A DNA stretch of 64,000 nucleotides from Nemertoderma westbladi (GCA_032718475.1 JAUCBJ010009051.1:41181-105180); one strand, 5' to 3'; shown: positions 12,667-47,500, numbered from the stretch's first letter. A program made the numbers and translations. The notes: a model not told the origin generated them from the letters alone.

Positions 12667-13007
12667 GTGACCGGGCCTGGGCCTGGTCTGCGACAAGGCT
12701 TGCCGGGCCGTTAAACCGTGCTGAAAATAAATGAATGATGTCATGGGCCGTAATTGTTGAATTATATATATACTCGAGAGCATATAGACTCGAGTATATA
12801 TGAGAGCGCAAAGAGGACAAGAGCGCAAACCAGTTACACTGGCATTTATTTATCAATAGAATAAAAGTCCAAATTAAAAATGACGGTACATATTGTATAT
12901 GGTATAAAACAAACAGATATTGATAAAAAATATTTAATTGATGTTAAAATATTCCGATTCGCTTGTGTTTTTGTTTAAATTTCAGACCTAACACGCTATA
13001 TGTCAGC

Positions 13008-13791: not shown

Positions 13792-15638
<1,847 letters not shown>

Positions 15639-15780: not shown

Positions 15781-16070
15781 CTTTATTTGCAAACTAACAA
15801 AAAGTTAATTTTCTTCGCCACTAGGCCAGGGATTACGCACAAAGTCTGACGACTTATTTCCAATGGGGTACGGTCCCCCCAGAACTTTACTCCCCTGAAG
15901 AAACTCCAGTACTCATTTACCTACTACTTAAGGATTCAAGGCAGAGATGCGCCCTGCTGGTCCCTTCAAAGTATTCGTGCCGAAACGAAAACTTCCCTGG
16001 CCCTTGTGAGGATCGAACCCAAAACCTACAGAAGATGTGAATTCAATGCAACCACTACACCGAGGTGGAA
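15781..16070 (-). mobile_element. tRNA-derived SINE (putative)
   Basis: Minus strand has an A-box-like CGGTGTAGTGG (~16062-16052) and a B box GGTTCGATCC (16019-16010), followed by a ~230-nt non-tRNA body ending near AAATAAA. Boundaries are approximate. Confidence 0.6.
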
Positions 16071-17745: not shown

Positions 17746-17754
17746 CCTAGCAGT

Positions 17755-20700
17755 TTGCAGGACCACTATTGTCTGTGTCTTAAACAACTAGCATCATTAA
17801 TACACAGATTACAGAAGATGGGCATTTTACAAAGATATCATGACGTCATAACGGATCATCTTTCCAAAGGCTATATCGAACCAGTAGATCATAGGGAACC
17901 AATAAGTAAGGATCAAGTAGCACATTACATTCCACATCATGGGGTGTTGAGAGAAACTCGATTAAGCACAAAATTAAGAGTTGTATTTAATGCATCAGCT
18001 AGAACATTTCCTACCGACCTATCATTGAATGATTGTTTAGAATCTGGCTCGCATTTATTTCCAAATTTGTGTCATTCATTGCTACACTTCAGGCTTCACA
18101 GCATAGGAATCACTGCCGATATTGAACAAGCCTTCCTACGCTGCCAGGTAAATGAAAATGATCAAAACTGTTTACGTTTTTTGTGGATTAAAAGCTGCTC
18201 AGGCATTGTTATTGAAGAAGCAAACATACAGGCATATCGATACACAAGGGCTCTTTTTGGGCTCACTTGTTCACCTCATATTTTGGGAGGGATTGTAAAG
18301 CACCATTTGGACATAGAATCAGAAAGAACGGATCTACAACAGAGTGAAAGGGATGCTATTGAGAAGTTGCGTGAGATTCATGTGGACGATTTATGTTCAG
18401 GAGCCAATTCGGTAGAAGAAGGTAGATTGTTGCAAACAACATGCAAATCTATTTTAGGACGGGCGGGATTTAAAATTAGACGGTGGACCACAAATAGTTG
18501 TGAGTTACAAAGAATGTTTAATACAGTTGAAGAAAGGGCAAGCAACTGTAATAATCGCACAGCAGAAAGTATAATTGAGGAAGATCAATCATTTGCAAAA
18601 ACGAATCTCAGTTTATCACCACCTCAAACGAATACTGTAAGACGCGTGCTTGGTCAATGTTGGGATTTGTCAACAGATACACTTGGCTATGACGTTTTGC
18701 CAGTATATAGCTTTATTGCAACTCTCCCTTTAACAAAAAAAGTCATTCTTCAACTTTCAGCAAGGTTGTACGACCCTCTTGGTTTACTTTCACCATTTAC
18801 GGCTCAATTTAAGGTCATGTTTCAAGAACTTTGTAAGACTAAAGTAAGTTTAGAGTGGAATAGTCCATTACCAGATCATATGGTTAAGGTATTCAAGAAA
18901 TGGTTAGAAGATATACCTCATATAAATAATATAACTGTGCCACGATATCTATTTGACACTACAAGAGACATTGCTACGTTTGAAATACACGGATTCTCAG
19001 ACGCTAGCAAATATATTTATGCAGGTGTGGCATATATTCGCACAACTTACACAGATAACACATCAAGTGTGAAACTATTAGCATCGAAAGCAAAGGTTAA
19101 CCCAGTACCAAAAAAGGGAAACTCTTTGGGTACACCACGACTCGAACTCTTAGGAGCACTCATTATGATAAGATTAATTACATTTGTCAAACAAGGTCTA
19201 AAATTACCATGCAAAGTTTACTTGTGGTCAGATGCAGTAGATGTAATTTACTGGATAAAAGCGACTAGTTCAAACTGCAAACAGTGGGTTCAATCCAGGG
19301 TTACGGAGATACGTTCATTAACTCAACAATTGAAAGGCCAGTGGCGGTTTTGTCCAGGAATACAAAATCCGGCCGACTTACCCACAAGAGGTATGACAGT
19401 AGAACAACTCATAAAGGCAACTACTTGGTTCAATGGCCCAAAGTTCTTAAGCGCAGAAGAGGAAACTTGGCCGAACAAATTAGTTATAGATCCAATAGAG
19501 GTATCCCAAGATTGTCTAAAGGAATTCAAATCATCCATTGTAGCTGTTACGACCATTAAATCACCCGATGAAGTTATTAGCAATTGTTTCCCATACTCCA
19601 ATTATAGCAATCATACTGTAATTATACGAAAGCTTGCGTGGGTGCTCAGGTTTGTGAGCAACATTCGAGCTAGCATACACAAACATCCGCTTTCCCTAAG
19701 TGTAGTTCCTTCGGCAGAAGAAATGACTCAAGCGGAAATTACACTACTTCGAATGATACAATTAGAACATTATAAACCAGAATTAGAATACTTGCAACAA
19801 CCGAAACGTGGTCGATGTCCAAACATTATTAAGCAATTAAACTTATTTATTGACCACCAAGGTGTATTACGCTCCAAAGGTAGAGCACAGACCCCATACT
19901 TAACATGGCAGGCTCAAAATCCAATACTACTCCCACCGAAAGATCATTTCACTAAGCTAGTAATTTTAAATGCTCATCATAAAGTTATGCATTCACGTGT
20001 AAGAGACACGCTGGTACAAATACGGGAAAGATATTGGATCCCCCGAGCGCGTCAAGTCATTAAGAATGTTTTACGAAACTGTGTAACCTGTAAAAGAACA
20101 CAAGGCAGACCTTATACAAAACAGGAAACAAGTCCTTTGCCCATTGAACGCATGACTATCGACACAAGTCCCTTTACTAATGTCGGGATAGATTTTGCAG
20201 GACCAGTGATGGCAGTTAGATCTCTTTCCGATCCGATCGGTTCAACATTTAAGGTTTATATATGTCTGTTCACTTGTGTCGTAGTAAGAGCAGTGCACTT
20301 GGAACTCGTGACCAGCTTAAGTGTTGCAGCATTTATCAGTGCATTCCGACGATTTATAGCAAGACGTGGAGTTCCAGCATTAATTTTTAGTGACAATGCT
20401 TCTACATTCAAACGATCAGCAGCAGATATCAAACTGTATAACAAATTTCTTGACAGTGACATAGTACGCAAGGAGTTTGGAGAACTCTTAACAAAATGGG
20501 TATTTAATGTAGAACGCTACCCGGCGGCATATGGCTTTATAGAGCGTTTGGTCGGTGTGACCAAAGGAGTTCTTCGCAAGACGTTAGGGAGAGCAGTTTT
20601 AACTGAAGAGGAAATTCGTACTGTACTTACATCATGTGAGGCAGTTGTTAATAGCAGACCACTAACCTTTATTTATAGCGACAGCAAAGAAAATTACCAG

Positions 20701-21291
20701 ATATTGACACCCAGCCATTTCTTGGTAGGAAAAAGACTTTGTGCACTTCCATCCCCTACCGTAAAATCAATTAATCTAGATTTGTCTCGAACGAATCTTA
20801 TAAATCGACTTAAATATCAAGAAAGAGCGTCCAATTTATATTGGAAATTATTTCGTGAAGAATACGTCGCAGAACTTCGGCAACACCATCGTTCCCAAAA
20901 TCACAATAACAGGAACACAATCATCCCTAAGGTTGGAGATATGTGTTTACTTCTTGATGAAAAACTTCCAAGATGTCTCTGGAAGTTGTGTATGGTTAAC
21001 AAGTTGATAGTAAGTCGTGATGGAGTTATTCGCGCAATAACAGTAAATGTTGCTGAAAGAGGTCGGGAAGCAAGACTTCTTACTCGTTCCATACGTTATG
21101 TTATTCTATTGGAAATAACAGCGGACAAACCAACTGACACGACTATTAAACCAGATAAAGATAATCTCAAGCCAGTTCTTCCAGTAGAAAATAAGATAAC
21201 AAACGATGAGACAGCGATCATAACTGACAATTCTCGTCTTTCACGCTTGGCTAAGAGAAAAATAAAACCAGGATTTTACAATGCAAAATAA
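17755..21291 (+). CDS. BEL/Pao LTR retrotransposon pol (RT, RNase H, integrase), 5'-truncated
   Basis: Motifs YIPHHGV, LRVVFNAS, ADIEQAF, HVDD, HGFSDAS, PRLEL, NPADLPTRG, an HHCC zinc finger, DFAGP, SDNA and NSRPL in BEL/Pao domain order. No gag or protease; the TTG start is an artefact. Confidence 0.95.
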   Translation: MQDHYCLCLKQLASLIHRLQKMGILQRYHDVITDHLSKGYIEPVDHREPISKDQVAHYIPHHGVLRETRLSTKLRVVFNASARTFPTDLSLNDCLESGSHLFPNLCHSLLHFRLHSIGITADIEQAFLRCQVNENDQNCLRFLWIKSCSGIVIEEANIQAYRYTRALFGLTCSPHILGGIVKHHLDIESERTDLQQSERDAIEKLREIHVDDLCSGANSVEEGRLLQTTCKSILGRAGFKIRRWTTNSCELQRMFNTVEERASNCNNRTAESIIEEDQSFAKTNLSLSPPQTNTVRRVLGQCWDLSTDTLGYDVLPVYSFIATLPLTKKVILQLSARLYDPLGLLSPFTAQFKVMFQELCKTKVSLEWNSPLPDHMVKVFKKWLEDIPHINNITVPRYLFDTTRDIATFEIHGFSDASKYIYAGVAYIRTTYTDNTSSVKLLASKAKVNPVPKKGNSLGTPRLELLGALIMIRLITFVKQGLKLPCKVYLWSDAVDVIYWIKATSSNCKQWVQSRVTEIRSLTQQLKGQWRFCPGIQNPADLPTRGMTVEQLIKATTWFNGPKFLSAEEETWPNKLVIDPIEVSQDCLKEFKSSIVAVTTIKSPDEVISNCFPYSNYSNHTVIIRKLAWVLRFVSNIRASIHKHPLSLSVVPSAEEMTQAEITLLRMIQLEHYKPELEYLQQPKRGRCPNIIKQLNLFIDHQGVLRSKGRAQTPYLTWQAQNPILLPPKDHFTKLVILNAHHKVMHSRVRDTLVQIRERYWIPRARQVIKNVLRNCVTCKRTQGRPYTKQETSPLPIERMTIDTSPFTNVGIDFAGPVMAVRSLSDPIGSTFKVYICLFTCVVVRAVHLELVTSLSVAAFISAFRRFIARRGVPALIFSDNASTFKRSAADIKLYNKFLDSDIVRKEFGELLTKWVFNVERYPAAYGFIERLVGVTKGVLRKTLGRAVLTEEEIRTVLTSCEAVVNSRPLTFIYSDSKENYQILTPSHFLVGKRLCALPSPTVKSINLDLSRTNLINRLKYQERASNLYWKLFREEYVAELRQHHRSQNHNNRNTIIPKVGDMCLLLDEKLPRCLWKLCMVNKLIVSRDGVIRAITVNVAERGREARLLTRSIRYVILLEITADKPTDTTIKPDKDNLKPVLPVENKITNDETAIITDNSRLSRLAKRKIKPGFYNAK

Positions 21292-21850: not shown

Positions 21851-22395
21851 ACTGCAGTGTACTTTACTTTACTGCAGTGTACTTTACTTTACTGCAGTGT
21901 ACTTTATTTTACTGCAATGTACATCACTTTACTGCAGTGTACTTTACTTTACTGCAGTGTTCTTTACCTTACTCCCAGTGTACATTACTTTACTGCAGTG
22001 TACTTTACTTTAAGGCAGTGTACTTTACTTTACTTCAGTGTACTTTACTTTACTGCAGTGTACTTTACTTTACTGCAGTGTACTTTACATTACAGCAGTG
22101 TACTTTACTTTACTGCAGTGTACTTTACTTTACTGCAGTGTACTTTACTTTACTGCAGTGTACTTTACTTTACTGCAGTGTACTTTACTTTACTGCAGTG
22201 TACTTTACTTTACTGCAGTGTACTTTACTTTACTGCAGTGTACTTTACTTTACTGCAGTGTACTTTACTTTACTGCAGTGTACTTTACTTTACTGCAGTG
22301 TACTTTACTTTACTGCAGTGTACTTTATTTTACTGCAATGTACATTACTTTACTGCAGTGTACTTTACTTTACTGCAGTGTACTTTACCTACTGC
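21851..22395. repeat. 20-bp satellite (ACTGCAGTGTACTTTACTTT), small block
   Basis: About 27 tandem copies. Confidence 0.97.
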
Positions 22396-23167: not shown

Positions 23168-26100
23168 TTACTCCCAGTGTACATTACTTTACTGCAGTGT
23201 ACTTTACTTTAAGGCAGTGTACTTTACTTTACTTCAGTGTACTTTACTTTACTGCAGTGTACTTTACTTTACTGCAGTGTACTTTACTTTACAGCAGTGT
23301 AATTTACTTTACTGCAGTGTACTTTACTTTACTGCAGTGTACTTTACTTTACTGCAGTGTACTTTACTTTACTGCAGTGTACTTTACTTTACTGCAGTGT
23401 ACTTTACTTTACTGCAGTGTACTTTACTTTACTGCAGTGTACTTTACTTTACAGCAGTGTACTTTACTTTACTGCAGTGTACTTTACTTTACTGCAGTGT
23501 ACTTTACTTTACAGCAGTGTACTTTACTTTACTACAGTGCACTTTACTTTACTGCAGTGTACTTTACTTTACTGCAGTGTACTTTACTTTACTGCAGTGT
23601 ACATTACTTTACTGCAGTGTACTTTACTTTACAGCAGTGTACTTTACTTTACTGCAGTGTACTTTACTTTACTGCAGTGTACTTTACTTTACAGCAGTGT
23701 ACTTTACTTTACTACAGTGCACTTTACTTTACTGCAGTGTACTTTACTTTACTGCAGTGTACTTTACTTTACTGCAGTGTACATTACTTTACTGCAGTGT
23801 ACTTTACTTTACAGCAGTGTACTTTACTTTACAGCAGTGTACTTTACTTTACTGCAGTGTACTTTACTTTACTACAGTGCACTTTACTTTACTGCAGTGT
23901 ACTTTACTTTACTGCAGTGTAGTTTACTTTACTGCAGTGTACTTTACTTTACTGCAGTGTACTTTACTTTACTGCAGTGTACTTTACTTTACTGCAGTGT
24001 ACTTTACTTTACTGCAGTGTACTTTACTTTACTGCAGTGTACTTTACTTTACTGCAGTGTACTTTACTTTACTGCAGTGTACTTTACTTTACTGCAGTGT
24101 ACTTTACTTTACTGCAGTGTACTTTACTTTACTGCAGTGTACTTTACTTTACTGCAGTGTACTTTACTTTACTGCAGTGTACTTTACTTTACTGCAGTGT
24201 ACTTTACTTTACTGCAGTGTACTTTACTTTACTGCAGTGTACTTTACTTTACTGCAGTGTACTTTACTTTACTGCAGTGTACTTTACTTTACTGCAGTGT
24301 ACTTTACTTTACTGCAGTGTACTTTACTTTACTGCAGTGTACTTTACCTTACTCCCAGTGTACATTACTTTACTGCAGTGTACTTTACTTTACTGCAGTG
24401 TATCTTTACCTTACTCCCAGTGTACATTACTTTACTGCAGTGTACTTTACTTTACTGCAGTGTACTTTACTTTACTTCAGTGTACTTTACTTTACTGCAG
24501 TGTACTTTACTTTACTGCAGTGTACTTTACTTTACAGCAGTGTACTTTACTTTACTGCAGTGTACTTTACTTTACTGCAGTGTACTTTACTTTACTGCAG
24601 TGTACTTTACTTTACTGCAGTGTACTTTACTTTACTGCAGTGTACTTTACTTTACTGCAGTGTACTTTACTTTACTGCAGTGTACTTTACTCTTACTCCG
24701 CAGTGTACTTTACTTTACTGCGGTGTACTTTACTTTACTGCAGTGTACTTTACTTTACAGCAGTGTACTTTACTTTACTGCAGTGTACTTTACTTTACTT
24801 CAGTGTACTTTACTTTACAGCAGTGTACTTTACTTTACTGCAGTGTACTTTACTTTACAGCAGTGTACTTTACTTTACTGCAGTGCACTTTACTTTACAG
24901 CAGTGTACTTTACTTTACTGCAGTGTACTTTACCTTACTCCCAGTGTACATTACTTTACTGCAGTGTACTTTACTTTACTGCAGTGTATTTTACCTTACT
25001 CCCAGTGTACATTACTTTACTGCAGTGTACTTTACTTTACTGCAGTGTACTTTACTTTACTGCAGTGCACTTTACTTTACTGCAGTGTACTTTACTTTAC
25101 AGCAGTGTACTTTACTTTACAGCAGTGTACTTTACTTTACAGCAGTGTACTTTACTTTACTGCAGTGTACTTTACTTTACTGCAGTGTACTTTACTTTAC
25201 TGCAGTGTACTTTACTTTACTGCAGTGTACTTTACTTTACTGCAGTGTACTTTACTTTACTGCAGTGTACTTTACTTTACTGCAGTGTACTTTACTTTAC
25301 AGCAGTGTACTTTACTTTACTGCAGTGTACTTTACTTTACTTCAGTGTACTTTACTTTACAGCAGTGTACTTTACTTTACTGCAGTGTACTTTACTTTAC
25401 AGCAGTGTACTTTACTTTACTGCAGTGCACTTTACTTTACAGCAGTGTACTTTACTTTACTGCAGTGTACTTTACCTTACTCCCAGTGTACATTACTTTA
25501 CTGCAGTGTACTTTACTTTACTGCAGTGTATTTTACCTTACTCCCAGTGTACATTACTTTACTGCAGTGTACTTTACTTTACTGCAGTGTACTTTACTTT
25601 ACTTCAGTGTACTTTACTTTACTGCAGTGTACTTTACTTTACTGCAGTGTACTTTACTTTACTGCAGTGCACTTTACTTTACTGCAGTGTACTTTACTTT
25701 ACTGCAGTGTACTTTACTTTACTGCAGTGTACTCTACTTTACTTCAGTGTACTTTACTTTACTGCAGTGTACTTTACTTTACTGCAGTGTACTTTACTTT
25801 ACTGCAGTGTACTTTACTTTACTGCAGTGTACATTACCTTACTGCAGTGTACATTACTTTACTGCAGTGTACTTTACCTTACTCCCAGTGTACATTACTT
25901 TACTGCGGTGTACTTTACTTTACTGCAGTGTACTTTACTTTACAGCAGTGTACTTTACTTTACTGCAGTGTACTTTACTTTACTTCAGTGTACTTTACTT
26001 TACAGCAGTGTACTTTACTTTACTGCAGTGTACTTTACTTTACAGCAGTGTACTTTACTTTACTGCAGTGCACTTTACTTTACAGCAGTGTACTTTACTT

Positions 26101-29100
26101 TACTGCAGTGTACTTTACCTTACTCCCAGTGTACATTACTTTACTGCAGTGTACTTTACTTTACTGCAGTGTATTTTACCTTACTCCCAGTGTACATTAC
26201 TTTACTGCAGTGTACTTTACTTTACTGCAGTGTACTTTACTTTACTGCAGTGCACTTTACTTTACTGCAGTGTACTTTACTTTACAGCAGTGTACTTTAC
26301 TTTACAGCAGTGTACTTTACTTTACAGCAGTGTACTTTACTTTACAGCAGTGTACTTTACTTTACTGCAGTGTACTTTACTTTACTGCAGTGTACTTTAC
26401 TTTACTGCAGTGTACTTTACTTTACTGCAGTGTACTTTACTTTACTGCAGTGTACTTTACTTTACTGCAGTGTACTTTACTTTACAGCAGTGTACTTTAC
26501 TTTACTGCAGTGTACTTTACTTTACTGCAGTGTACTTTACTTTACTGCAGTGTACTTTACTTTACTGCAGTGTACTTTACTTTACTGCAGTGTACTTTAC
26601 TTTACTGCAGTGTACTTTACTTTACTGCAGTGTACTTTACTTTACAGCAGTGTACTTTACTTTACAGCAGTGTACTTTACTTTACTGCAGTGTACTTTAC
26701 TTTACTGCAGTGTACTTTACTTTACTGCAGTGTACTTTACCTTACTGCAGTGTACTTTACTTTACTGCAGTGTACATTACTTTACTGCGGTGTACTTTAC
26801 TTTACTGCAGTGTACTTTACTTTACAGCAGTGTACTTTACTTTACTGCAGTGTACTTTACTTTACTGCAGTGCACTTTACTTTACTTCAGTGCACTTTAC
26901 TTTACTGCAGTGTACTTTACTTTACTGCAGTGTACTTTACTTTACTGCAGTGTACTTTACTTTACTTCAGTGTACTTTACTTTACAGCAGTGTACTTTAC
27001 TTTACTGCAGTGCACTTTACTTTACTTCAGTGCACTTTACTTTACAGCAGTGTACTTTACTTTACTGCAGTGTACTTTACTTTACTGCAGTGTACTTTAC
27101 TTTACTGCAGTGTACTTTACTTTACTGCAGTGTACTTTACTTTACTGCAGTGTACTTTACTTTACAGCAGTGTACTTTACTTTACTGCAGTGTACTTTAC
27201 TTTACAGCAGTATACTTTACTTTACTGCAGTGTACTTTACTTTACTGCAGTGTACTTTACTTTACTGCAGTGTACTTTACTTTACTGCAGTGTACTTTAC
27301 TTTACTACAGTGTACTTTACTTTACAGCAGTGTACTTTACTTTACAGCAGTGTACTTTACTTTACTGCAGTGTACTTTACTTTACTGCAGTGTACTTTAC
27401 TTTACTGCAGTGTACTTTACTTTACAGCAGTGTACTTTACTTTACTTCAGTGTACTTTACTTTACTGCAGTGTACTTTACTTTACTGCAGTGTACTTTAC
27501 CTTACTGCTGTGTACTTTACTTTACTGCAGTGTACTTTACTTTACTGCAGTGTACTTTACTTTACTGCAGTGTACTCTACTTGACTTCAGTGTACTTTAC
27601 TTTACTGCAGTGTACATTACTTTACTGCAGTGTACTTTACCTTACTCCCAGTGTACTTTACTTTGCTGCAGTGTACTTTACTTTACTGCAGTGTACTTTA
27701 CTTTACTTCAGTGTACTTTACTTTACTTCAGTGTACTTTACTTTACTGCAGTGTACTTTACTTTACTTCAGTGTACTTTACCTTACTGCAGTGTACATTA
27801 CTTTACTGCAGTGTACTTTACCTTACTCCCAGTGTACATTACTTTACTGCGGTGTACTTTACTTTACTGCAGTGTACTTTACTTTACAGCAGTGTACTTT
27901 ACTTTACTGCAGTGTACTTTACTTTACTTCAGTGTACTTTACCTTACTGCAGTGTACATTACTTTACTGCAGTGTACTTTACCTTACTCCCAGTGTACAT
28001 TACTTTACTGCGGTGTACTTTACTTTACTTCAGTGCACTTTACTTTACTGCAGTGTACTTTACTTTACTGCAGTGTACTTTACTTTACTGCAGTGTACTT
28101 TACCTTACTCCCAGTGTACTTTACTTTGCTGCAGTGTACTTTACTTTACTGCAGTGTACTTTACTTTACTTCAGTGTACTTTACTTTACTTCAGTGTACT
28201 TTACTTTACTGCAGTGTACTTTACTTTACTTCAGTGTACTTTACCTTACTGCAGTGTACATTACTTTACTGCAGTGTACTTTACCTTACTCCCAGTGTAC
28301 ATTACTTTACTGCGGTGTACTTTACTTTACTGCAGTGTACTTTACTTTACAGCAGTGTACTTTACTTTACTGCAGTGTACTTTACTTTACTTCAGTGTAC
28401 TTTACCTTACTGCAGTGTANNNNNNNNNNNNNNNNNNNNNNNNNNNNNNNNNNNNNNNNNNNNNNNNNNNNNNNNNNNNNNNNNNNNNNNNNNNNNNNNN
28501 NNNNNNNNNNNNNNNNNNNATTACTTTACTGCAGTGTACTTTACCTTACTCCCAGTGTACATTACTTTACTGCGGTGTACTTTACTTTACTTCAGTGCAC
28601 TTTACTTTACTGCAGTGTACTTTACTTTACTGCAGTGTACTTTACTTTACTGCAGTGTACTTTACCTTACTCCCAGTGTACATTACTTTACTGCGGTGTA
28701 CTTTACTTTACTTCAGTGCACTTTACTTTACTGCAGTGTACTTTACTTTACTGCAGTGTACTTTACCTTACTGCAGTGTACTTTACCTTACTGCAGTGTA
28801 CTTTACTTTACTGCAGTGTACTTTACTTTACTGCAGTGTACTTTACTTTACTTCAGTGTACTTTACCTTACTGCAGTGTACATTACTTTACTGCAGTGTA
28901 CTTTACCTTACTCCCAGTGTACATTACTTTACTGCGGTGTACTTTACTTTACTTCAGTGCACTTTACTTTACTGCAGTGTACTTTACTTTACTGCAGTGT
29001 ACTTTACTTTACTGCAGTGTACTTTACTTTACTGCAGTGTACTTTACCTTACTGCAGTGTACTTTACCTTACTGCAGTGTACTTTACTTTACTGCAGTGT

Positions 29101-29691
29101 ACTTTACTTTACTGCAGTGTACTTTACTTTACTGCAGTGCACTTTACTTTACTGCAGTGTACTTTACTTTACTGCAGCGTACTTTACTTTACTGCAGTGT
29201 ACTTTACTTTACTGCAGTGTACTTTACTTTACTGCAGTGTACTTTACCTTACTGCAGTGTACTTTACTTTACTGCAGTGTACTTTACTTTACAGCAGTGT
29301 ACTTTACTTTACTGCAGTGTACTTTACTTTACTTCAGTGTACTTTACTTTACTTCAGTGTACTTTACTTTACTGCAGTGTACTTTACTTTACTGCAGTGT
29401 ACTTTACTTTACAGCAGTGTACTTTACTTTACTGCAGTGTACTTTACTTTACTGCAGTGTACTTTACTTTACTGCAGTGTACTTTACATTACTGCAGTGT
29501 ACTTTACTTTACAGCAGTGTACTTTACTTTACTGCAGTGTACTTTACTTTACTGCAGTGTACTTTACTTTACTGCAGTGCACTTTACTTTACTTCAGTGC
29601 ACTTTACTTTACTGCAGTGTACTTTACTTTACTGCAGTGTACTTTACTTTACTGCAGTGTACTTTACTTTACTGCAGTGTACTTTACTTAC
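23168..29691. repeat. 20-bp satellite, main block, beginning exactly at the CK2-alpha donor site
   Basis: More than 300 tandem copies with 21-bp variants (CCTTACTCCCAG). Includes an assembly gap. Confidence 0.98.
28420..28519. other. Assembly gap (100 N)
   Basis: Run of N. The true array and intron length is unknown. Confidence 0.99.
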
Positions 29692-29802
29692 CTTTAGCAA
29701 CTCGTGTAAATAAAATCGAATGTCAAAGTCTGAAAGTGTCTGATAAAGTTGCTTGAAATCGTTGTTATTTACGTTTTCGAAAATTAACGCCGGTGTCCTC
29801 GA
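29692..29802 (-). CDS. CSNK2A1: Casein kinase II alpha, internal exon ([37 protein letters not shown])
   Basis: 111 nt, acceptor CCTTTTAG, donor GTAAGT. Continues in phase 0 from ...VKDPV and matches the CK2-alpha hinge region S106-K142. Confidence 0.96.
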
Positions 29803-29855
29803 CTAAAAGGATATTAAATAATTAAAAAACTAAAAATATGAAGTTATAAATAAAT

Positions 29856-29919
29856 TTAAAGATCCAGTGGTGAGTAGACCTAATGTTATCATTATGTCTA
29901 CTCACCGCTGGATCTTTAA
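29856..29919. repeat. Inverted repeat (30-bp arms, 4-nt loop, 2 mismatches) capping the 51/56-bp array
   Basis: TTAAAGATCCAGTGGTGAGTAGACCTAATG-TTAT-CATTATGTCTACTCACCGCTGGATCTTTAA. Confidence 0.92.
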
Positions 29920-32900
29920 CAACAGCCTGTAACTGTATAACATTAGGTCTCCTCTACTCACCGCTGGATCTTTAACAACAGCCTGTAACTGTATAACATT
30001 AGGTCTCCTCTACTCACCGCTGGATCTTTAACAACAGCCTGTAACTGTATAACATTAGGTCTACTCACCAGTGGATCTTTAACAACAGCCTGTAACTGTA
30101 TAACATTAGGTCTCCTCTACTCACCACTGGATCTTTAACAACAGCCTGTAACTGTATAACATTAGGTCTACTCACCACTGGATCTTTAACAACAGCCTGT
30201 AACTGTATAACATTAGGTCTCCTCTACTCACCACTGGATCTTTAACAACAGCCTGTAACTGTATAACATTAGGTCTCCTCTACTCACCGCTGGATCTTTA
30301 ACAACAGCCTGTAACTATATAACATTAGGTCTACTCACCAGTGGATCTTTAACAACAGCCTGTAACTGTATAACATTAGGTATCCTCTACTCACCACTGG
30401 ATCTTTAACAACAGCCTGTAACTGTATAACATTAGGTCTACTCACCACTGGATCTTTAACAACAGCCTGTAACTGTATAACATTAGGTCTACTCACCACT
30501 GGATCTTGAACAACAGCCTGTAACTGTATAACATTAGGTCTACTCACCACTGGATCTTTAACAACAGCCTGTAACTGTATAACATTAGGTCTGCTCACCA
30601 CTGGATCTTTAACAACAGCCTGTAACTGTATAACATTAGGTCTACTCACCACTGGATCTTTAACAACAGCCTGTAACTGTATACCATTAGGTCTACTCAC
30701 CACTGGATCTTTAACAACAGCCTGTAACTGTATAACATTAGGTATCCTCTACTCACCACTGGATCTTTAACAACAGCCTGTAACTGTATAACATTAGGTC
30801 TAGTCTACTCACCACTGGATCTTTAACAACAGCCTGTAACTGTATAACATTAGGTCTCCTCTACTCACCACTGGATCTTTAACAACAGCCTGTAACTGTA
30901 TAACATTAGGTCTCCTCTACTCACCACTGGATCTTTAACAACAGCCTGTAACTGTATAACATTAGGTCTCCTCTACTCACCACTGGATCTTTAACAACAG
31001 CCCGTAACTGTATAACATTAGGTCTAGTCTACTCACCACTGGATCTTTAACAACAGCCTGTAACTGTATAACATTAGGTCTAGTCTACTCACCACTGGAT
31101 CTTTAACAACAGCCTGTAACTGTATAACATTAGGTCTCCTCTACTCACCACTGGATCTTTAACAACAGCCTGTAACTGTATAACATTAGGTATACGCTAC
31201 TCACCACTGGATCTTTAACAACAGCCTGTAACTGTATAACATTAGGTCTACTCACCACTGGATCTTTAACAACAGCCTGTAACTGTATACCATTAGGTCT
31301 ACTCACCACTGGATCTTTAACAACAGCCTGTAACTGTATAACATTAGGTCTCCTCTACTCACCAGTGGATCTTTAACAACAGCCTGTAATGGTATAACAT
31401 TAGGTCTAGTCTACTCACCACTGGATCTTTAACAACAGCCTGTAACTGTATAACATTAGGTCTAGTCTACTCACCACTGGATCTTTAACAACAGCCTGTA
31501 ACTGTATAACATTAGGTCTCCTCTACTCACCACTGAATCTTTAACAACAGCCTGTAACTGTATAACATTAGGTCTCCTCTACTCACCACTGGATCTTTAA
31601 CTACAGCCTGTAACTGTATAACATTAGGTCTCCTCTACTCACCACTGGATCTTTAACTACAGCCTGTAACTGTATAACATTAGGTCTCCTCTACTCCCCA
31701 CTGGATCTTTAACAACAGCCTGTAACTGTATAACATTAGGTCTACTCACCACTGGATCTCCAACAACAGCCTGTAACTGTATAACAATAGGTATACTCAC
31801 CACTGGATCTTTAACAACAGCCTGTAACTGTATAACAATAGGTCTACTCACCACTGGATCTTTAACAACAGCCTGTAACTGTATAACATTAGGTCTCCTC
31901 TACTCCCCACTGGATCTTTAACAACAGCCTGTAACTGTATAACATTAGGTCTACTCACCACTGGATCTCCAACAACAGCCTGTAACTGTATAACAATAGG
32001 TATACTCACCACTGGATCTTTAACAACAGCCTGTAACTGTATAACATTAGGTCTACTCACCACTGGATCTTTAACAACAGCCTGTAACTGTATAACATTA
32101 GGTCTCCTCTACTCACCACTGGATCTTTAACAACAGCCTGTAACTGTATAACATTAGGTCTCCTCTACTCACCACTGGATCTTTAACAACAGCCTGTAAC
32201 TGTATACCATTAGGTCTACTCTACTCACCACTGGATCTTTAACAACAGCCTGTAACTGTATAACATTAGGTCTCCTCTACTCACCACTGGATCTTTAACA
32301 ACAGCCTGTAACTGTATAACATTAGGTTACTCACCACTGGATCTTTAACAACAGCCTGTAACTGTATAACATTAGGTCTCCTCTACTCACCACTGGATCT
32401 TTAACAACAGCCTGTAACTGTATAACATTAGGTCTACTCACCACTGGATCTTTAACAACAGCCTGTAACTGTATAACATTAGGTCTACTCACCACTGGAT
32501 CTTTAACAACAGCCTGTAACTGTATAACATTAGGTCTCCTCTACTCACCACTGGATCTTTAACAACAGCCTGTAACTGTATAACATTAGGTCTCCTCTAC
32601 TCACCACTGGATCTTTAACAACAGCCTGTAACTGTATAACATTAGGTCTCCTCTACTCACCACTGGATCTTTAACAACAGCCTGTAACTGTATAACATTA
32701 GGTCTACTCACCACTGGATCTTTAACAACAGCCTGTAACTGTATAACATTAGGTCTCCTCTACTCACCACTGGATCTTTAACAACAGCCTGTAACTGTAT
32801 AACATTAGGTCTACTCACCACTGGATCTTTAACAACAGCCTGTAACTGTATAACATTAGGTCTACTCACCACTGGATCTTTAACAACAGCCTGTAACTGT

Positions 32901-33761
32901 ATAACATTAGGTCTCCTCTACTCACCACTGGATCTTTAACAACAGCCTGTAACTGTATAACATTAGGTCTACTCACCACTGGATCTTTAACAACAGCCTG
33001 TAACTGTATAACATTAGGTCTACTCACCACTGGATCTTTAACAACAGCCTGTAACTGTATAACATTAGGTCTACTCACCACTGGATCTTTAACAACAGCC
33101 TGTAACTGTATAACATTAGGTATAGTCTACTCACCACTGGATCTTTAACAACAGCCTGTGACTGTATAACATTAGGTCTAGTCTACTCACCACTGGATCT
33201 TTAACAACAGCCTGTGACTGTATAACATTAGGTCTAGTCTACTCCCCACTGGATCTTTAACAACAGCCTGTAACTGTATGACATTAGGTCTCCTCTACTC
33301 ACCACTGGATCTTTAACAACAGCCTGTAACTGTATAACATTAGGTCTACTCACTACTGGATCTTTAACAACAGCCTGTAACTGTATAACATTAGGTCTCC
33401 TCTACTCACCACTGGATCTTTAACAACAGCCTGTAACTGTATAACATTAGGTCTACTCACCACTGGATCTTTAACAACAGCCTGTAACTGTATAACATTA
33501 GGTCTACTCACCACTGGATCTTTAACAACAGCCTGTGACTGTATAACATTAGGTCTAGTCTACTCACCACTGGATCTTTAACAACAGCCTGTGACTGTAT
33601 AACATTAGGTCTAGTCTACTCCCCACTGGATCTTTAACAACAGCCTGTAACTGTATAACATTAGGTCTCCTCTACTCACCACTGGATCTTTAACAACAGC
33701 CTGTAACTGTATAACATTAGGTCTACTCACCACTGGATCTTTAACAACAGCCTGTAACTGT
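29890..33761 (-). repeat. 51/56-bp satellite derived from the CK2-alpha exon 3' end plus donor site, distal block (~70 copies)
   Basis: Minus-strand unit CCTAATGTTATACAGTTACAGGCTGTTGTTAAAGATCCAGTG|GTGAGTAGA(GGAGA or CTAGA), which reads [14 protein letters not shown] followed by the 5' splice site. Confidence 0.97.
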
Positions 33762-36187
33762 CCTGTAACGCCCTCGCGTCAGCAGATGATAGTGGCAATG
33801 GTGGAATTGGTCTATTGATGAATCCAACTGCACATGCAGCATTGGACAAAATAGACCAAATCTCTAACCGCATCATCCGTTGCCACTTCTCATGTTCTGG
33901 AAGACTGGCTAAGAAGTTTCCTAAGGTGGTTCTGATTGTGTGCTACTCTCCAACTAGTGTTGCCCCTGTAGAGGAGGTGGAAAATTTCTACCACAATCTA
34001 CAAGCAGCAACTGATGGAGTGGATCAGCATGCATTCTTAACATTCCTGGGAGACTTTAATGCAAGTCTGCATCAATCACCTACATCGCCCTGGGCCTATA
34101 GCAATAGTGTTAACCGAAATTCTGTCCATCTTCAGGATTTTATCTCTGGAAATGGATTGTTTTCGGCTGGAACCCAGTTCAAGAAGCGAACTGGAAAGCT
34201 ATGGACTCATAGTGGACCCAGTGGTCACAAGTCCCAGATAGACCATATTCTGTTTCGTAGGAAATACAGGAGCTCTATACAAGACTGTAATGCATTTACA
34301 CTTCGACCCTTCTCCAGTGATCACCGCCTTATTGTGGCCAAGGTAAGACTTAGTCTGCGTGCTAGCAGAACAACGAAATCTGCCTTGCCACGGCATGACT
34401 GGTCCTCTCTGTTGGTCCTCTCTGCTTACTGGGCGGAAAAGCCAACCAACCACCAAGGTTAAGGCTGAATCACCAGCCGATCGCCTCAATGGTTGGAAAG
34501 CCCACTTTGAAAAGCTCCTCAATAATGACAGGGTATTGCCTGATAACTTTATAGAAGTAAAGGTGTCTGAGTCTGTACTCCCAGATATTCCCATTGGCGA
34601 TATCTCCTTTGCAGAAGTGAAGGCTGCTGCAAAGAGCATTAAGACCAATCGTGCCAGTGGAGTAGATGGTGTTCCCCCTGAGGTCTTTAAAATACCTGAG
34701 TGTTTAAAGCTCATCTATCCCATCATAGTAGACATGTACCGTACAACAAGAGTCCCACAAGAAATGAAAACAAATAAGTTGGTGCCAGTTCCCAAGAAGG
34801 GCAACCTAACACTCTATGGTTCTTTTCGGGGAATCTCATTGATCTCGATTGCTGCAAAGCTATACAATAGGATTCTATTAAATCGCATCAGGGATCCCAT
34901 TGAGAGACTGCTCCGTGGAAATCAGAATGGGTTCCGTAAAGGTCGTGGGACCATGGAGCCCATTTTGGCACTTAGAAGGATAATTGAAGAATTATCAAAA
35001 AAGAAAGACAGGCATCTGGCTGTTATCTTTGTTGACTTCTTCAAGGCCTTTGATTCAGTCTCTCGCTCACGTATGTTCAGCATACTTTCATTATATGGGA
35101 TTCCTGATGAAATTATTGCAGCAATCAGATCAGTATACGATGGTTCGACAACATTTGTGTCTACTGTTGACGGTGACACAGAACCATTTGAAGTGTTATG
35201 GGGCGTCCTCCAAGGAGACACACTTGCACCATTCTTGTTCATTATTGTGGTTGACTATGTTCTACGCATGTCCTTAGATCATCATAATGATGATGGGGTG
35301 ATGATAACTCCACCTACTGGCTCCAGAAGTCGAGGAAATCCTGCCAAGTACCTAACTGATCTAGACTTTGCTGATGACTTAGGAGTACTCTCAGAATCAT
35401 TAGAGGGAGCCCAGCGGCTCCTCAGCTCATTAGAACATGCTGCTTCTAGTGTTGGTCTTTTTATTAACTCCAGAAAGACCAAAATTCTGACAGTTAACTT
35501 TGAAAGTCCTCAGCACGTCTCTGATCGGATGAGCATAAGCTCAAAGGATGGTATGCTTGAGCATGTGGACGACTTCTGTTACCTGGGATCATGGATCCGG
35601 AAGTCAGGTGAGGACCTTCGAATACGTAAGGGAAAGGCATGGGCAGCCTTGAATAGGCTTTCCAGGATTTGGAAGTCACCTAGAATTAATCGGAAACTTC
35701 AGGTCCGATTATTCAGAGCAGCAGTAGTTCCAGTACTCCTCTACGGGAGTCCATGCTGGGCTCTAACTGCTGAGGACACCAAATCTCTGGATGGCACATT
35801 CACAAGAATGCTACGCCGGGTACATTGTGTCAAGTACAGTGCACACATCTCCAACCAGACACTATATAACATTGGAGGTGTCTCATTGGTTCCCCCAAGC
35901 TTGACACTAGAACAAAATCGCCTCCGCTTTGCAGGACATTGCTTTCGCCGTGAGGACCAGCCAGTGCATAATCTTGTACTTTGGCAGCCTCATGGAGTGA
36001 ATAAGCATGGTGGACAGCCCATGACTTTCTTGAGACGCATCTTAAAGGACACTGGCCTTAAAGATGCGGATGATCTAGCAAATGTCATGGGTGATAGGGA
36101 GTTGTGGCGGTGCAATTTTGTTGACAAGCCGGCACAGCATTCTTAAAATGCAGCTGCAATGCAGCATGCCGATCCTAGTAGTAGTAG
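33762..36187 (+). mobile_element. RTE-clade non-LTR retrotransposon, 5'-truncated, with an internal deletion/frameshift and a (TAG)n tail
   Basis: APE motifs (CYSPT, GDFNA, QIDHIL, SDH) in 33815..34462. RT motifs (QNGFRKGR, DFFKAFD, GVLQGDTLAP, FADD) in 34359..36146. Very short 3' UTR ending CTAGTAGTAGTAGTA. Confidence 0.93.
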
Positions 36188-36697
36188 TATAACATTAGGT
36201 CTCCTCTACTCACCACTGGATCTTTAACAACAGCCTGTAACTGTATAACATTAGGTCTACTCACCACTGGATCTTTAACAACAGCCTGTAACTGTATAAC
36301 ATTAGGTCTACTCACCACTGGATCTTTAACAACAGCCTGTAACTGTATAACAATAGGTCTCCTCTACTCACCACTGGATCTTTAACAACAGCTTGTAACT
36401 GTATAACAATAGGTCTACTCACCACTGGATCTTTAACAACAGCCTGTAACTGTATAACATTAGGTCTAGTCTACTCACCACTGGATCTTTAACAACAGCC
36501 TGTGACTGTATAACATTAGGTCTAGTCTACTCACCACTGGATCTTTAACAACAGCCTGTAACTGTATAACATTAGGTCTCCTCTACTCACCACTGGATCT
36601 TTAACAACAGCCTGTAACTGTATAACATTAGGTCTACTCACCACTGGATCTTTAACAACAGCTTGTAACTGTATAACATTAGGTCTCCTCTACTCAC
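36188..36697 (-). repeat. 51/56-bp exon+donor satellite, exon-proximal block (~9-10 copies)
   Basis: Same unit, contiguous with the real exon, whose last 42 nt form the terminal unit. Confidence 0.97.
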
Positions 36698-36799
36698 CAC
36701 TGGATCTTTAACAACAGCTTGTAACTGTATAACATTAGGTCCTCCACGTAAGTTCTCAAGAATTTTTATTTCACGTTTAATCTTCTTTTTATTTACTGG
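36698..36799 (-). CDS. CSNK2A1: Casein kinase II alpha, internal exon ([34 protein letters not shown])
   Basis: Manual translation of the minus strand: 102 nt, acceptor TTTGTTTTTAG, donor GTGAGT. Matches the CK2-alpha basic cluster/helix C region (human P72-V105). Not in the ORF track. The symbol denotes the CK2-alpha family; paralogue identity is not established. Confidence 0.96.
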
Positions 36800-36970
36800 C
36801 TAAAAACAAAAAATAGAAAAAACATGCATTATGGGTTGATAATAATTATACTTGTGCGTATAAATAAGATGATGGGTAAAGGTTAAATAAATAAATTGAA
36901 ACTGAAACAACTAACGGTACGGTACATTATGTTTATTATAAGTAACAGTAAGTCCGTTAACCGAAAAGGT

Positions 36971-41465: not shown

Positions 41466-44400
41466 TTTAAGTTTTAGTTTAAGTTTAAGTTTATTGTTAT
41501 TTATAGGAAAATGTTATAATTAGAACCATCACCAAAGCACAGTTTAGTTGTAATGGAATAAAAAGAAAATGTGTATGCAGTGTGCGAGGCGGTGGGTTGG
41601 TAAGGGTTGCAGCAATAGCCAGGCTAGTCGAGGCTGCCAACCGACCAAGGGTAAATGTACTGTATATGTAACTAAGTATTATATATTTGAAAAAAGATAA
41701 AATAAGAACTGTTATAAACCTTTAATAATTGTTGATCAGGATCACAAGGAAATATAATAATTTAATTAACCATTTTACAATACACTGTAGTGAAGAAACA
41801 GTCCAGTCGCAGTGTATGTGAGAAGGAAATATAATAAGATAGAGCCAGACATATAGGGAGATATTGTGTAATGTATTATTATGACGTTACGTCATGTGTT
41901 CAAATAGGTATGTTTTAAATTGACGTTTAAATGAAAATTTAGATTTGCTAATAATTAGACTAGAGGGGAGACTGTTCCACAATACTGGCCCAGTGACTGA
42001 TAATCCTTGGTGTGCTACATTGAGACGGGTTAACGGTACTACGAATTTGCCTAAAGTAGATGAACGGGTGTTATATAAATGAATATCAGACAATTTAGTA
42101 AAAAAATTTGAAAGAGGGTGATTATTAGAAGATTTTGATATATCGTACATTAACTGGCCTAATTGTAATTCAAATATAGATTCGATTGGCAAAACATTTA
42201 GTGATTTGTAAAGTGGCACAGAGTGAGCCCGGTAGTCACTAAATGTTATGCAACGCAAGATTTTATTAACTTTAATTCTTAGTGGACGTGTTATTGATTT
42301 GCAGGCAGTACCCCAAGCAAGAATTCCATAAGTGATGTAAGGATTAATTAATGTATAATACAGCGTACGTAAAATTTGGCTTGGGAAAAAGTGTCTTAAT
42401 TTATAAAAAAGTCCGGAGGATCTAGATATTTTTTTAAGGATGTAATTTATATGCGTTTTCCAGCTCAAATTGTCATCGATAAAGATACCTAAGTACTTAG
42501 TGCTATTTACCTTAGTAATTTCATTGGCTTTAATTTTAACTTTCGGTAGTCCAAGACAGTTTTTGTTACTAAAAATAGAGTATTCTGTTTTACTAAGATT
42601 AAGTGATAATGAGTTGTCTATAAGCCAGTCCGAAATTTTTTCCAGTTCAGTGTTTGTGTTGTTAATCAATAAATTTAAGTCTGAATTGAAGCCCAGTAAC
42701 GTCGTATCGTCGGCAAATAAAGTTGTCAAAAATTTGGATGCGTCCGGTAAGTCGTTCACATATAAAAGAAACAGCAATGGTGAAAGGACTGAACCCTGGG
42801 GCGTTCCGCAGGTTACCGGAAGAGTGGGTGAGATTACGCCATTTAAGGATACTGATTGTGTACGGTCTGTTAGAAAACTCCTAAGTAAAGTCTGGGGGGT
42901 GCCTCGAATTCCGTAAGATTCTAATTTTTTAAATAAGGTAGAGTGGTTCAGCGTATCAAACGCTTTTTTTAAATCTAGATAAATTGCGCAGATAGATTCT
43001 TTTGAGTCAAGGTGAAATCTAATTTTTTCTGTAACCGTTAGAATAGCCGAAGCCGTAGAAATCCTCTTTCGAAAACCGAATTGTGATGCAGTCAAAATAC
43101 AGAAACGATCTAAATAAGATTGAAGCTGTGAGTATATAACCTGTTCTAGAATTTTTGTAAAAACTGGCAATAATGATATTGGCCTATAGTTATTAGAATC
43201 TAGTGGATCACCCCCCTTAAAACATGGGATTATTTTAGATTGTTTAAGAGAAACTGGATAATGACCTGTTGTGATACATAGGTTAAATAAATATGCTAGA
43301 TGAGGTGCAATGTGTTCAGCAGCAATTTTTAATAATTTACTGGGAAAGTTGTCATTAGTAGCGCTGTTTTCATTTATTTGTAAAAGTAGGTAGTGAATTT
43401 CAGCTACAGAAGTTTCAATAAGAGTAAATGAATTCGAGTGTCGATGGTTAATGTGGCGGGTAGGGCATCGGTTAGATCGGGGTATTGTACTGGCAAGTTT
43501 TGGTCCAATAGTTGAAAAATGTTCGTTGAAAATAGATGCTATTTTATGGGGATCAGACGTTATTTTTGCCCCTACTTCTGTTCTGAAAGCAATTTTGGTA
43601 GGGCTTAGGGATTTCTTATTTTTGTGTAATACAGAGTTAATTACAGACCACGTCTTGCGCATATTTCCTTTGTTTTTTAAAAATTCTTGATTATAGAATG
43701 ATTTTTCAGCGGCTCTGATTACAGTCGTTAAATTATTACGATATGTTTTATAGGCTTTTTGGGTTTCAGAACACGGTGATTTAATATATTTTTCATATAA
43801 TTTATTTTTTTTAGAAATTGATTTAATTAGCAAAGGAGTTAGCCATGGTTTGCGTGCAATTTTTCTTTTTGTAATTATTTTTTTAGGTAAGTGTTTTTGG
43901 CATAATTGATCAAAAGAATTGTAAAAAGTGTCGAATTTTTTATCTGTCGGTATATTATGGGATCGGTAAGCTGCGAGAGGTGGTAATGAAAGGTCGAGCA
44001 AAAAACTATTTAAGTTAAATTTGCTATAATCATAACACATTTTAGTATTGGGTTGTTTGAAAAAAGCAGAATAATTATGAAATAACGCAAATGTTCCAAG
44101 GTGGTCTGTTGTGCCAATTTCTGATAAAAAAAAACGCCGGCAGTAGTAAAATCATTCGTAATATTAGTAATAATATGGTCAAGCGTTGAATTAGCACCGT
44201 GTGCAATTCGAGTGGGTTGTTTTATTAATTGGGAAAATCCGTATGATGAAAGTATCTGTAAGTATCGTGCACTTTCTGATGTCATTTTGTTTAAGTTAAC
44301 ATTGAAGTCACCAGTGAGGACGATATCTATATTTTTATCAGATACTTTCGCCAATGCGGGTTCTAGAATATTAATAAAATTATTGTAATTGACAGACGGT

Positions 44401-44576
44401 GGTCTGTATATTACACCTAACACTAAGGACTTATTGTTGGATTTTTTAATTTGCATCCATTTATTATGAATTCCCGACACAGTCAAGTCGTCTCGTTCCG
44501 TAAAGGTTAGCGTATCCTTAATGTAAATTCCCACACCCCAACCGGAACCTGAGGAACGTCCCTCTGGTCTGTCTCT
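41466..44576 (-). mobile_element. CR1/L2-group (Crack/Daphne-like, tentative) LINE, 5'-truncated, with intact 3' UTR and (TTAAAC)n tail
   Basis: APE motifs (YRPP, GDFN, LDHI) in 44010..44534. RT motifs (YRPIS, QFGFR, DLKKAFD, GTPQGSVLSP, FADD, HLYNTR) in 41887..44040. AATAAA at 41495-41490 followed by TTAAAC repeats. GGTCAG is present at both junctions. Confidence 0.94.
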
Positions 44577-47500
44577 GGTCAGGGTTGAGTGAACGCCAAT
44601 AGTAAAGGGAAGGAAGGGTCAGGGTTGGGTGAACGCCAATAGAAAAGGGAAGGAAGGGTCAGGGTTGAGTGAACGCCAATAGTAAAGGGAAGGAAGGGTC
44701 AGGGTTGAGTGAACGCCAATAGAAAAGGGAAGGAAGGGTCAGGGTTGAGTGAACGCCAATAGAAAAGGGAAGGAAGGGTCAGGGTTGAGTGAACGCCAAT
44801 AGAAAAGGGAAGGAAGGGTCAGGGTTGAGTGAACGCCAATAGAAAAGGGAAGGAAGGGTCAGGGTTGAGTGAACGCCAATAGAAAAGGGAAGGAAGGGTC
44901 AGGGTTGAGTGAACGCCAATAGTAAAGGGAAGGAAGGGTCAGGGTTGAGTGAACGCCAATAGTAAAGGGAAGGAAGGGTCAGGGTTGAGTGAACGCCAAT
45001 AGTAAAGGAAAGGAAGTGTCAGGGTGGAGTGAACGCCAATAGTAAAGGGAAGGAAGGGTCAGGGTTGATAGTAAAGGGAAGGAAGGGTCAGGGTTGAGTG
45101 AACGCCAACAGTAAAGGGAAGGAAGGGTCAGGGTTGAGTGAACGCCAATAGTAAAGGGAAGGAAGGGTCAGGGTTGAGTGAACGCCAATAGTAAAGGGAA
45201 GGAAGGGTCAGGGTTGGGTGAACGCCAATAGAAAAGGGAAGGAAGGGTCAGGGTTGAGTGAACGCCAATAGTAAAGGGAAGGAAGGGTCAGGGTTGGGTG
45301 AACGCCAATAGAAAAGGGAATGAAGGGTCAGGGTTGAGTGAACGCCAATAGTAAAGGGAAGGAAGGGTCAGGGTTGAGTGAACGCCAATAGAAAAGGGAA
45401 GGAAGGGTCAGGGTTGAGTGAACGCCAATAGTAAAGGGAAGGAAGGGTCAGGGTTGAGTGAACGCCAATAGTAAAGGAAAGGAAGGGTCAGGGTTGAGTG
45501 AACGCCAATAGTAAAGGGAAGGAAGGGTCAGGGTTGAGTGAACGCCAATAGTAAAGGGAAGGAAGGGTCAGGGTTGGGTGAACGCCAATAGAAAAGGGAA
45601 GGAAGGGTCAGGGTTGAGTGAACGCCAATAGTAAAGGGAAGGAAGGGTCAGGGTTGAGTGAACGCCAATAGAAAAGGGAAGGAAGGGTCAGGGATGGGTG
45701 AACGCCAATAGAAAAGGGAAGGAAGGGTCAGGGTTGAGTGAACGCCAATAGTAAAGGGAAGGAAGGGTCAGGGTTGAGTGAACGCCAATAGTAAAGGGAA
45801 GGAAGGGTCAGGGTCAGGGTTGAGTGAACGCCAATAGTAAAGGGAAGGAAGGGTCAGGGTTGAGTGAACGCCAATAGTAAAGGGAAGGAAGGGTCAGGGT
45901 TGAGTGAACGCCAATAGAAAAGGGAAGGAAGGGTCAGGGTCAGGGTTGAGTGAACGCCAATAGTAAAGGGAAGGAAGGGTCAGGGTTGGGTGAACGCCAA
46001 TAGAAAAGGGAAGGAAGGGTCAGGGTTGAGTGAACGCCAATAGTAAAGGGAAGGAAGGGTCAGGGTTGGGTGAACGCCAATAGAAAAGGGAAGGAAGGGT
46101 CAGGGTTGAGTGAACGCCAATAGTAAAGGGAAGGAAGGGTCAGGGTTGAGTGAACGCCAATAGAAAAGGGAAGGAAGGGTTAGGGTTGAGTGAACGCCAA
46201 TAGAAAAGGGAAGGAAGGGTCAGGGTTGGGTGAACGCCAATAGAAAAGGGAAGGAAGGGTCAGGGTTGAGTGAACGCCAATAGTAAAGGGAAGGAAGGGT
46301 CAGGGTTGAGTGAACGCCAATAGAAAAGGGAAGGAAGTGTCAGGGTTGGGTGAACGCCAATAGAAAAGGGAAGGAAGGGTCAGGGTTGAGTGAACGCCAA
46401 TAGAAAAGGGAAGGAAGGGTCAGGGTTGAGTGAACGCCAATAGAAAAGGGAAGGAAGGGTCAGGGTTGAGTGAACGCCAATAGAAAAGGGAAGGAAGGGT
46501 CAGGGTTGAGTGAACGCCAATAGAAAAGGGAAGGAAGGGTCAGGGTTGAGTGAACGCCAATAGTAAAGGGAAGGAAGGGTCAGGGTTGAGTGAACGCCAA
46601 TAGTAAAGGGAAGGAAGGGTCAGGGTTGAGTGAACGCCAATAGTAAAGGGAAGGAAGGGTCAGGGTTGAGTGAACGCCAATAGAAAAGGAAAGGAAGGGT
46701 CAGGGTTGAGTGAACGCCAATAGAAAAGGGAAGGAAGGGTCAGGGTTGAGTGAACGCCAATAGTAAAGGGAAGGAAGGGTCAGGGTTGAGTGAACGCCAA
46801 TAGTAAAGGGAAGGAAGGGTCAGGGTTGGGTGAACGCCAATAGAAAAGGGAAGGAAGGGTCAGGGTTGAGTGAACGCCAATAGTAAAGGGAAGGAAGGGT
46901 CAGGGTTGAGTGAACGCCAATAGTAAAGGGAAGGAAGGGTCAGGGTTGAGTGAACGCCAATAGAAAAGGGAAGGAAGGGTCAGGGTTGAGTGAACGCCAA
47001 TAGTAAAGGGAAGGAAGGGTCAGGGTTGAGTGAACGCCAATAGTAAAGGGAAGGAAGGGTCAGGGTTGAGTGAACGCCAATAGAAAAGGGAAGGAAGGGT
47101 CAGGGTTGAGTGAACGCCAATAGTAAAGGGAAGGAAGGGTCAGGGTTGAGTGAACGCCAATAGTAAAGGGAAGGAAGGGTCAGGGTTGAGTGAACGCCAA
47201 TAGTAAAGGGAAGGAAGGGTCAGGGTTGAGTGAACGCCAATAGTAAAGGGAAGGAAGGGTCAGGGTTGAGTGAACGCCAATAGAAAAGGGAAGGAAGGGT
47301 CAGGGTTGAGTGAACGCCAATAGAAAAGGGAAGGAAGGGTCAGGGTTGAGTGAACGCCAATAGTAAAGGGAAGGAAGGGTCAGGGTTGGGTGAACGCCAA
47401 CAGTAAAGGGAAGGAAGGGTCAGGGTTGAGTGAACGCCAATAGTAAAGGGAAGGAAGGGTCAGGGTTGAGTGAACGCCAATAGTAAAGGGAAGGAAGGGT

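Follow-up and report, generated by a model that had tools for sequence, protein, structure and literature searches.

How is a 5' splice site chosen when the intron behind it offers the same site again and again? The question is raised by a gene for the protein kinase CK2-alpha of Nemertoderma westbladi, in which the end of one exon and the donor that follows it are multiplied within the next intron. The whole stretch of DNA analysed (64 kb, hereafter the window) carries four exons of the gene, named A to D in order of transcription. Their features, placed in part with a contig from run X4 that is described below, are:

36799-36698, minus strand: CK2-alpha exon A, 102 nt and 34 codons (PVNKKK...KDPV), from translation with flanks and tblastn to CK2-alpha (85-88%)
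36684..36697, minus strand: true 5' splice site and initial 14 intron nt; the X4 contig departs from the genome at 36698 and resumes at the start of exon B
29803..29855, minus strand: unique 3' end of the intron with its acceptor, the joint being present in X4
29802-29692, minus strand: CK2-alpha exon B, 37 codons, from tblastn; the X4 contig links it to exons A and C
16452-16258, minus strand: CK2-alpha exon C, from catalytic loop to activation segment, matching solved CK2-alpha chains (E 1e-40)
15638-15519, minus strand: CK2-alpha exon D, from tblastn, flanks and domain match

Translation with flanks gives one open frame through exons A-D, with canonical AG and GT ends. The exons resemble CK2-alpha of insects, sponges and vertebrates about equally (159-162 of 176 residues, in a comparison with 120 stored proteins). 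Transcript-like junctions in X4 join exon A to an upstream exon, A to B and B to C. Open exons, the E value of exon C and these spliced junctions uphold the naming of the gene as CK2-alpha in an initial annotation made from the sequence, and the first base of exon B is 29802, where that annotation had put the acceptor. A tblastn search with three CK2-alpha proteins matched exons A-D only; since the 64 kb hold just these four, the gene runs beyond both ends of the window. A candidate exon near 12720 was rejected for want of a CK2 match in tblastn, and an Rfam search of 12600-37500 returned zero matches. The basic stretch of exon A at 36790-36799 reads PVNKKKIK, against PVKKKKIK in stored CK2-alpha proteins, and X4 has the same letters as the window.

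The intron between exons A and B (6,895 nt) is occupied by the following elements, in the direction of kinase transcription:

36187..36697, minus strand: upstream block of the donor array, with 9 extra donors and the first part of a unit split by a LINE
33762..36186, plus strand, antisense to the kinase: 5'-truncated non-LTR retrotransposon of 2,425 nt, from ORFs, domains and junctions
29897..33761, minus strand: downstream block of the donor array, with 72 extra donors, 51- and 56-nt units and higher-order duplications; multi-copy unit contigs in X1, X2 and X3
29856-29889, plus strand: 34-nt inverted copy of a 51-nt-type unit junction, in the assembly only

Each unit of the array consists of the last 42 nt of exon A and 9 or 14 nt of the intron. 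Counting the true one, 82 units bear a donor; of the 81 extra donors, 77 retain GT. Identity to the true donor extends over positions -3..+6 in 68/81 extras and over -20..+8 in 59/81, while the whole unit core is identical to the true one in only 1/81. These counts agree with the annotated picture of some 80 copies of an exon end with an intact donor, nearly all in the original local context. The array does not fill almost the whole intron as first described: the two blocks (511 and 3,865 nt) add up to 4,376 nt, or 63%, and are separated by the retrotransposon. Two further features had been overlooked, the inverted copy and an A>G change at -22 found in all extra copies but two.

The first unit (36739-36684) spans the exon-intron boundary at 36698/36697 and the others follow head to tail, within the 10-160 bp unit size of minisatellites; the later units keep the splice signal as counted above. 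Tandem Repeats Finder scores of 6218 and 876, for a threshold of 50, place the array far beyond chance. The units are about 99% alike and fall into 35 types arranged in blocks of higher-order duplication, the units at the edges being the most divergent. Donor letters differ at 5/567 positions (0.88%) and core letters at 36/3,360 (1.07%), a comparison of small counts in which shared variants are non-independent. The donor positions and the remainder of the unit drift alike, without a hint that selection acts to preserve or to destroy the donors.

The junctions between units provide a view of the origin of the array. They are of the 51-nt type in 31/81 cases and of 56-nt types with two spacers in 31/81 and 11/81. 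The main junctions finish with GA, the dinucleotide found in the exon just before the unit, and a 2-nt GA overlap fits both lengths. An origin through GAGGA microhomology predicts 54-nt units and was discarded, as 0/81 junctions are of that type; of the GAGGA/GA microhomology initially proposed, the GAGGA part therefore fails. It is likely that a local duplication of 51-56 nt started the array and that its later growth took place without function. In the simplest account a short duplication joined at the 2-nt GA overlap would have seeded it, and slippage or unequal exchange would have expanded it both before and after the arrival of the retrotransposon. The ancestral intron was probably short, given that only about 53 nt of unique intron are left.

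The insertion in the array, missed in the initial annotation, codes for endonuclease (PF03372/PF14529) and reverse transcriptase (PF00078) domains, is truncated at its 5' end and finishes in a short tail of TAG repeats with a 2-nt overlap at the target, which together are the marks of a non-LTR retrotransposon. It has an internal gap and a frame change near 34411-34419, seen as a two-frame tblastn match, and is 41-56% identical to intact relatives; it may be RTE-like. It splits one unit and rare unit variants are present on both of its sides, which suggests that the array predates the insertion. The 5' end of the insert (33762-33780) repeats eight letters of the adjoining target unit and may mark template jumping.

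The surroundings are equally rich in repeats. Tandem repeats make up 72% of the window, which also holds several retroelement fragments, and the next intron has a satellite of its own:

23175..29691, minus strand: 20-nt satellite starting at +1 of intron B-C, its copies without the +5 G of the donor

The first 19 nt of this satellite hold the donor of exon B, and in the 20-nt copies the +5 G is lost through an additional A; 27 variant copies read AAG|GTAAAG. Two neighbouring introns thus have arrays that begin at the donor, with intact copies in intron A-B and spoiled ones in B-C. A second block of the 20-nt satellite (21851-22388) has rare variants in common with the first, and the stretch before it resembles part of a SINE-like sequence near 15880-15960, a resemblance only. 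An assembly gap of 100 N lies inside the satellite at 28420-28519, and intron B-C may for this reason exceed 13.2 kb. The same intron contains a BEL/Pao LTR retrotransposon in antisense (17728-21291, plus strand) with an open frame of 1,187 codons and domains PF05380, PF17921 and PF18701. The intron preceding exon A is filled by a 40-nt satellite of more than 23 kb (37495-63965), and exon D is followed by a 27-nt satellite of about 10 kb (275-12656). Each is split by a LINE fragment, at 41495-44580 and 4300-6320, respectively, and each is rich in pyrimidines on the transcribed strand. Thirteen near-identical 60-nt units and a decayed LINE reverse-transcriptase fragment, which the units follow, occupy 13008-13791 and 13938-15050.

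Contigs from other data sets bear on the existence of the array. Five runs from three studies contain the nearby unique stretch or part of it, and four of them (X1-X4) were compared at two edge stretches, X5 and X6 having a small share of it or none. X1 and X2, which belong to different studies, each yielded a 535-nt contig that reaches from the upstream intron across exon A and into the first donor without a difference from the window, at depths of 37.9 and 26.8, respectively. Unit contigs reached depths of 153-498 in X1 and 954 in X2. The ratio of unit to single-copy depth, scaled by word counts in the window, corresponds to 14-18 units in X1 and about 72 in X2, compared to 81 in the window; contig depth is a rough measure open to library bias, X1 or X2 may be the source of the assembly, and for X3 no single-copy contig is listed at exon A for normalising. 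The array is real and its length is likely polymorphic, with an apparent variation of about five-fold between samples. It is very improbable that the array was created by assembly or that this gene copy is dead. The depth in X1 fits only its 14-18 units and no array-spanning record is found among those listed, but unit contigs are multi-copy in two studies, the unique contig leading into the first donor is the same in X1 and X2, and 35 unit types with higher-order structure are present; a dead gene is at odds with open exons and spliced junctions. The two findings named in advance as fatal to the initial reading, an artefact and an untranscribed copy, are thus contradicted by multi-copy DNA contigs and by the spliced contig of X4.

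This X4 contig (785 nt, depth 1,478) covers 36698-36801 with 0 differences, continues into exon B on one side and into an upstream exon on the other, joins exon B to C as well, and has the exon-type letter at -22. When laid on the last unit it still has exon-type letters and runs on into the unique part of exon A. The first donor is therefore used, since the contig joins the complete exon A to exon B; this is exactly the junction expected from the earlier claim that the most upstream donor wins. X4 is labelled 'DNA?' and was judged to be RNA by its behaviour, as its share of the words in the exon C-D stretch is 0.25, compared to 0.27 expected from exons alone. It is unlikely that the contig stems from a processed DNA copy: X1-X3 are without the joined form and X4 is without cover of the unique intron, though filtered data have holes. 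Use of the authentic, most upstream donor in normal mRNA is thus documented by one contig from one run of a third sample, and minor forms are possible. No record on unit junctions or decoy junctions is found among those listed for X4, where rare forms are dropped in making contigs.

Use of any other donor would be costly to the product. Splicing from the second donor adds 56 nt and leads to a stop in exon B, and with later donors the extended exon itself contains a stop, at its codon 54; the translations were made for 7/81 decoys with the final exon coordinates and apply otherwise to all decoys that pass the second donor. A first unit of 51 nt would have been read through in frame; the 56-nt first unit is a single case and supports no claim of selection. 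RNAs with premature stops are removed by nonsense-mediated decay.

Repeats of this type have been described before, and the arrangement is less puzzling than the initial annotation took it to be: the same layout was described and tested in human F7, in four other human genes and in lancelets, according to the sections of the literature drawn on here. In the 37-bp VNTR of F7 intron 7 the pseudo-sites are functional, only the most upstream site is used, and the pseudo-sites become active once this first donor is mutated (Borensztajn et al. 2006, PMC1557585). The same source reports the layout in 6-16 (IFI6), CBS, LMNB2 and PDGF, with 4-8 extra donors in F7, up to 25 in 6-16, 15-20 in CBS, 10-15 in LMNB2 and 16-18 in PDGF; in 6-16 and CBS the next pseudo-sites are also used (PMC1557585). 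As in this group, the first unit of the CK2-alpha array lies across the exon-intron boundary, identical donors follow, the most upstream one is used and array length probably varies. It differs, as far as those accounts go, in its 81 extra donors, far above 4-25, in a unit that is mostly exon (42 of 51-56 nt; 4 of 37 in F7), in its occurrence in a non-human animal, in being split by a LINE and in having its last donor 103 nt from the acceptor beside an inverted copy.

The lancelet 'mirage' minisatellites of the globins BflGb6 and BflGb9, Adh3, troponin C and PGBD5 are given in the parts cited as unstable in length and compatible with normal splicing (PMC3087553, PMC3902484). The CK2-alpha array differs from these in having far more units (BflGb6 has 3 and 6), in the likeness of its units, about 99%, and in the satellite that opens the adjoining intron at +1. 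A looser parallel of context is offered by the giant Y-linked introns of Drosophila, which consist mostly of satellite and transposon DNA (PMC11207136, in the portion used); the present introns measure kilobases rather than megabases, the gene is a housekeeping kinase, and the repeat derives from its own splice junction. The splice-donor minisatellite, or mirage, is thus an already published repeat type, and the present array is larger than the published cases compared here.

What singles out the first donor in the CK2-alpha transcript? It is favoured neither by sequence nor by predicted structure. An RNA structure that would favour it was considered and rejected: predicted openness is 0.35 at the true donor and 0.52 on average at the decoys, and neither region folds better than shuffled sequences. 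Its distinction is its position, 102 nt behind a pyrimidine-rich acceptor, transcribed first and between long introns. The acceptor upstream of exon A has 15/17 pyrimidines while the AG sites within units have 5-9/17; such weak sites may nonetheless be usable, as the real acceptor of exon D has only 9/17 and equals the best unit AG. Human data and minigenes indicate that, of equal donors, the upstream one is favoured between long introns and the downstream one between short introns, in the sections of that work on which we draw (PMC9225289). Three decoys within 250 nt of the downstream acceptor count against a positional reading, because the same human data, to the extent cited, favour the nearest donor there (PMC9225289).

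The locus is probably best explained as a near-neutral minisatellite, each unit of which takes in the end of an exon together with the 5' splice site, with extra donors that are out-competed rather than disabled. We hold that the choice of the first donor is positional, by analogy with F7 and with the human minigene and genome data. The first donor alone would pair across the 102-nt exon with the strong acceptor upstream, and exon definition together with the order of transcription would pick it. Rare slips would go to nonsense-mediated decay, and carrying the array would then cost little. Some leakage to decoys is plausible here, since 6-16 and CBS also use the next pseudo-sites, as described in the part of the F7 study used (PMC1557585).

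That same leakage could be read as a device by which the array tunes the dose of CK2-alpha, more units leading to extra donors and decay or gathering U1 snRNP. The retention of GT in 77/81 donors, the premature stop in every decoy product and the apparent length variation between samples would suit such a role, which we nevertheless regard as quite unlikely: the donors are without excess conservation, the array is interrupted by a LINE, a 56-nt first unit is enough to account for the stop (47/81 listed full-length units have this size), and a contig joined at a decoy is absent among the X4 records listed. The suggestion of a U1 landing platform or expression rheostat in the initial annotation finds no support, given donors that drift as the other positions do, the LINE inside and a length that appears to vary about five-fold. 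Removal of intron A-B in steps, through AG sites and donors of the units, is very doubtful. Every unit does contain four YAG sites, with one of the AGs owed to the -22 change, as well as a branch-like word, CTAAT. The YAGs end at offsets 15, 21, 40 and 50 of the unit and the GT of the donor starts at 43, so that YAG never directly abuts GT and a zero-length recursive site is absent; introns from unit to unit would be only 30-35 nt long, and use of a unit AG would leave additional exon letters in the product, of which the X4 contig has none.

The inverted copy at the end of the array suggests another way in which decoys might be restrained. It pairs with the last unit (29890-29919) over 30 nt with a 4-nt loop, and the predicted hairpin (-42.2 kcal/mol, z -10.9, 0/200 shuffles as stable) covers the last extra donor at 29905. 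This donor would define an intron of 103 nt; the other decoys near the acceptor lie at 159 and 215 nt. The array could thus be a burden tolerated partly through a fold-back copy that locks the donor nearest to the acceptor, with the inversion kept as a compensating change. The fit is close, as exactly this donor is covered and the fold is predicted to be stable; we think the account improbable even so, since an unstable array can be expected to produce a snap-back at its end as a by-product, and any such copy must cover part of a unit. One arm would be unable to cover the decoys at 159 and 215 nt simultaneously, it also has perfect matches at 20 array sites and over 23 nt in the region of the true donor, and, uncovered by the runs, it may be private to a haplotype or a product of assembly. 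The arm is seen in the assembly only, and no contig of X1, X2 or X3 is listed over it or over exon B (29692-29889); this hole is neutral on the hairpin because exon B, certain to exist in DNA, falls within it as well and the records are filtered. The arm having no run cover and a snap-back being expected, a protective role of the hairpin is unlikely, and the model in which the array grew into the intron-definition range of the acceptor and was then locked by its own 30-bp fold-back hairpin is held at the same low probability. No counterpart of the hairpin is found in the F7-type and mirage cases as far as their published descriptions were used, in a general literature search not aimed at hairpin-masked arrays.

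Under the preferred explanation, a near-neutral minisatellite whose extra donors are out-competed by position, no new splicing mechanism is needed. The locus takes a known repeat type to 81 extra donors, roughly threefold the highest number given in the cited sections for the published cases compared, and even so the first donor remains in use, in a conserved kinase gene and in another animal. It is also a handy natural substrate: ordinary short reads can tell junctions of the true donor from those of decoys by the letter at -22, and a premature stop marks every error. Its importance would grow if the hairpin turned out to be real and necessary or if array length altered kinase dose. Were the hairpin model true, a housekeeping kinase gene would possess a self-made splicing safeguard, and alleles of about 15 to 80 units would provide a natural dose series for the choice among identical donors.
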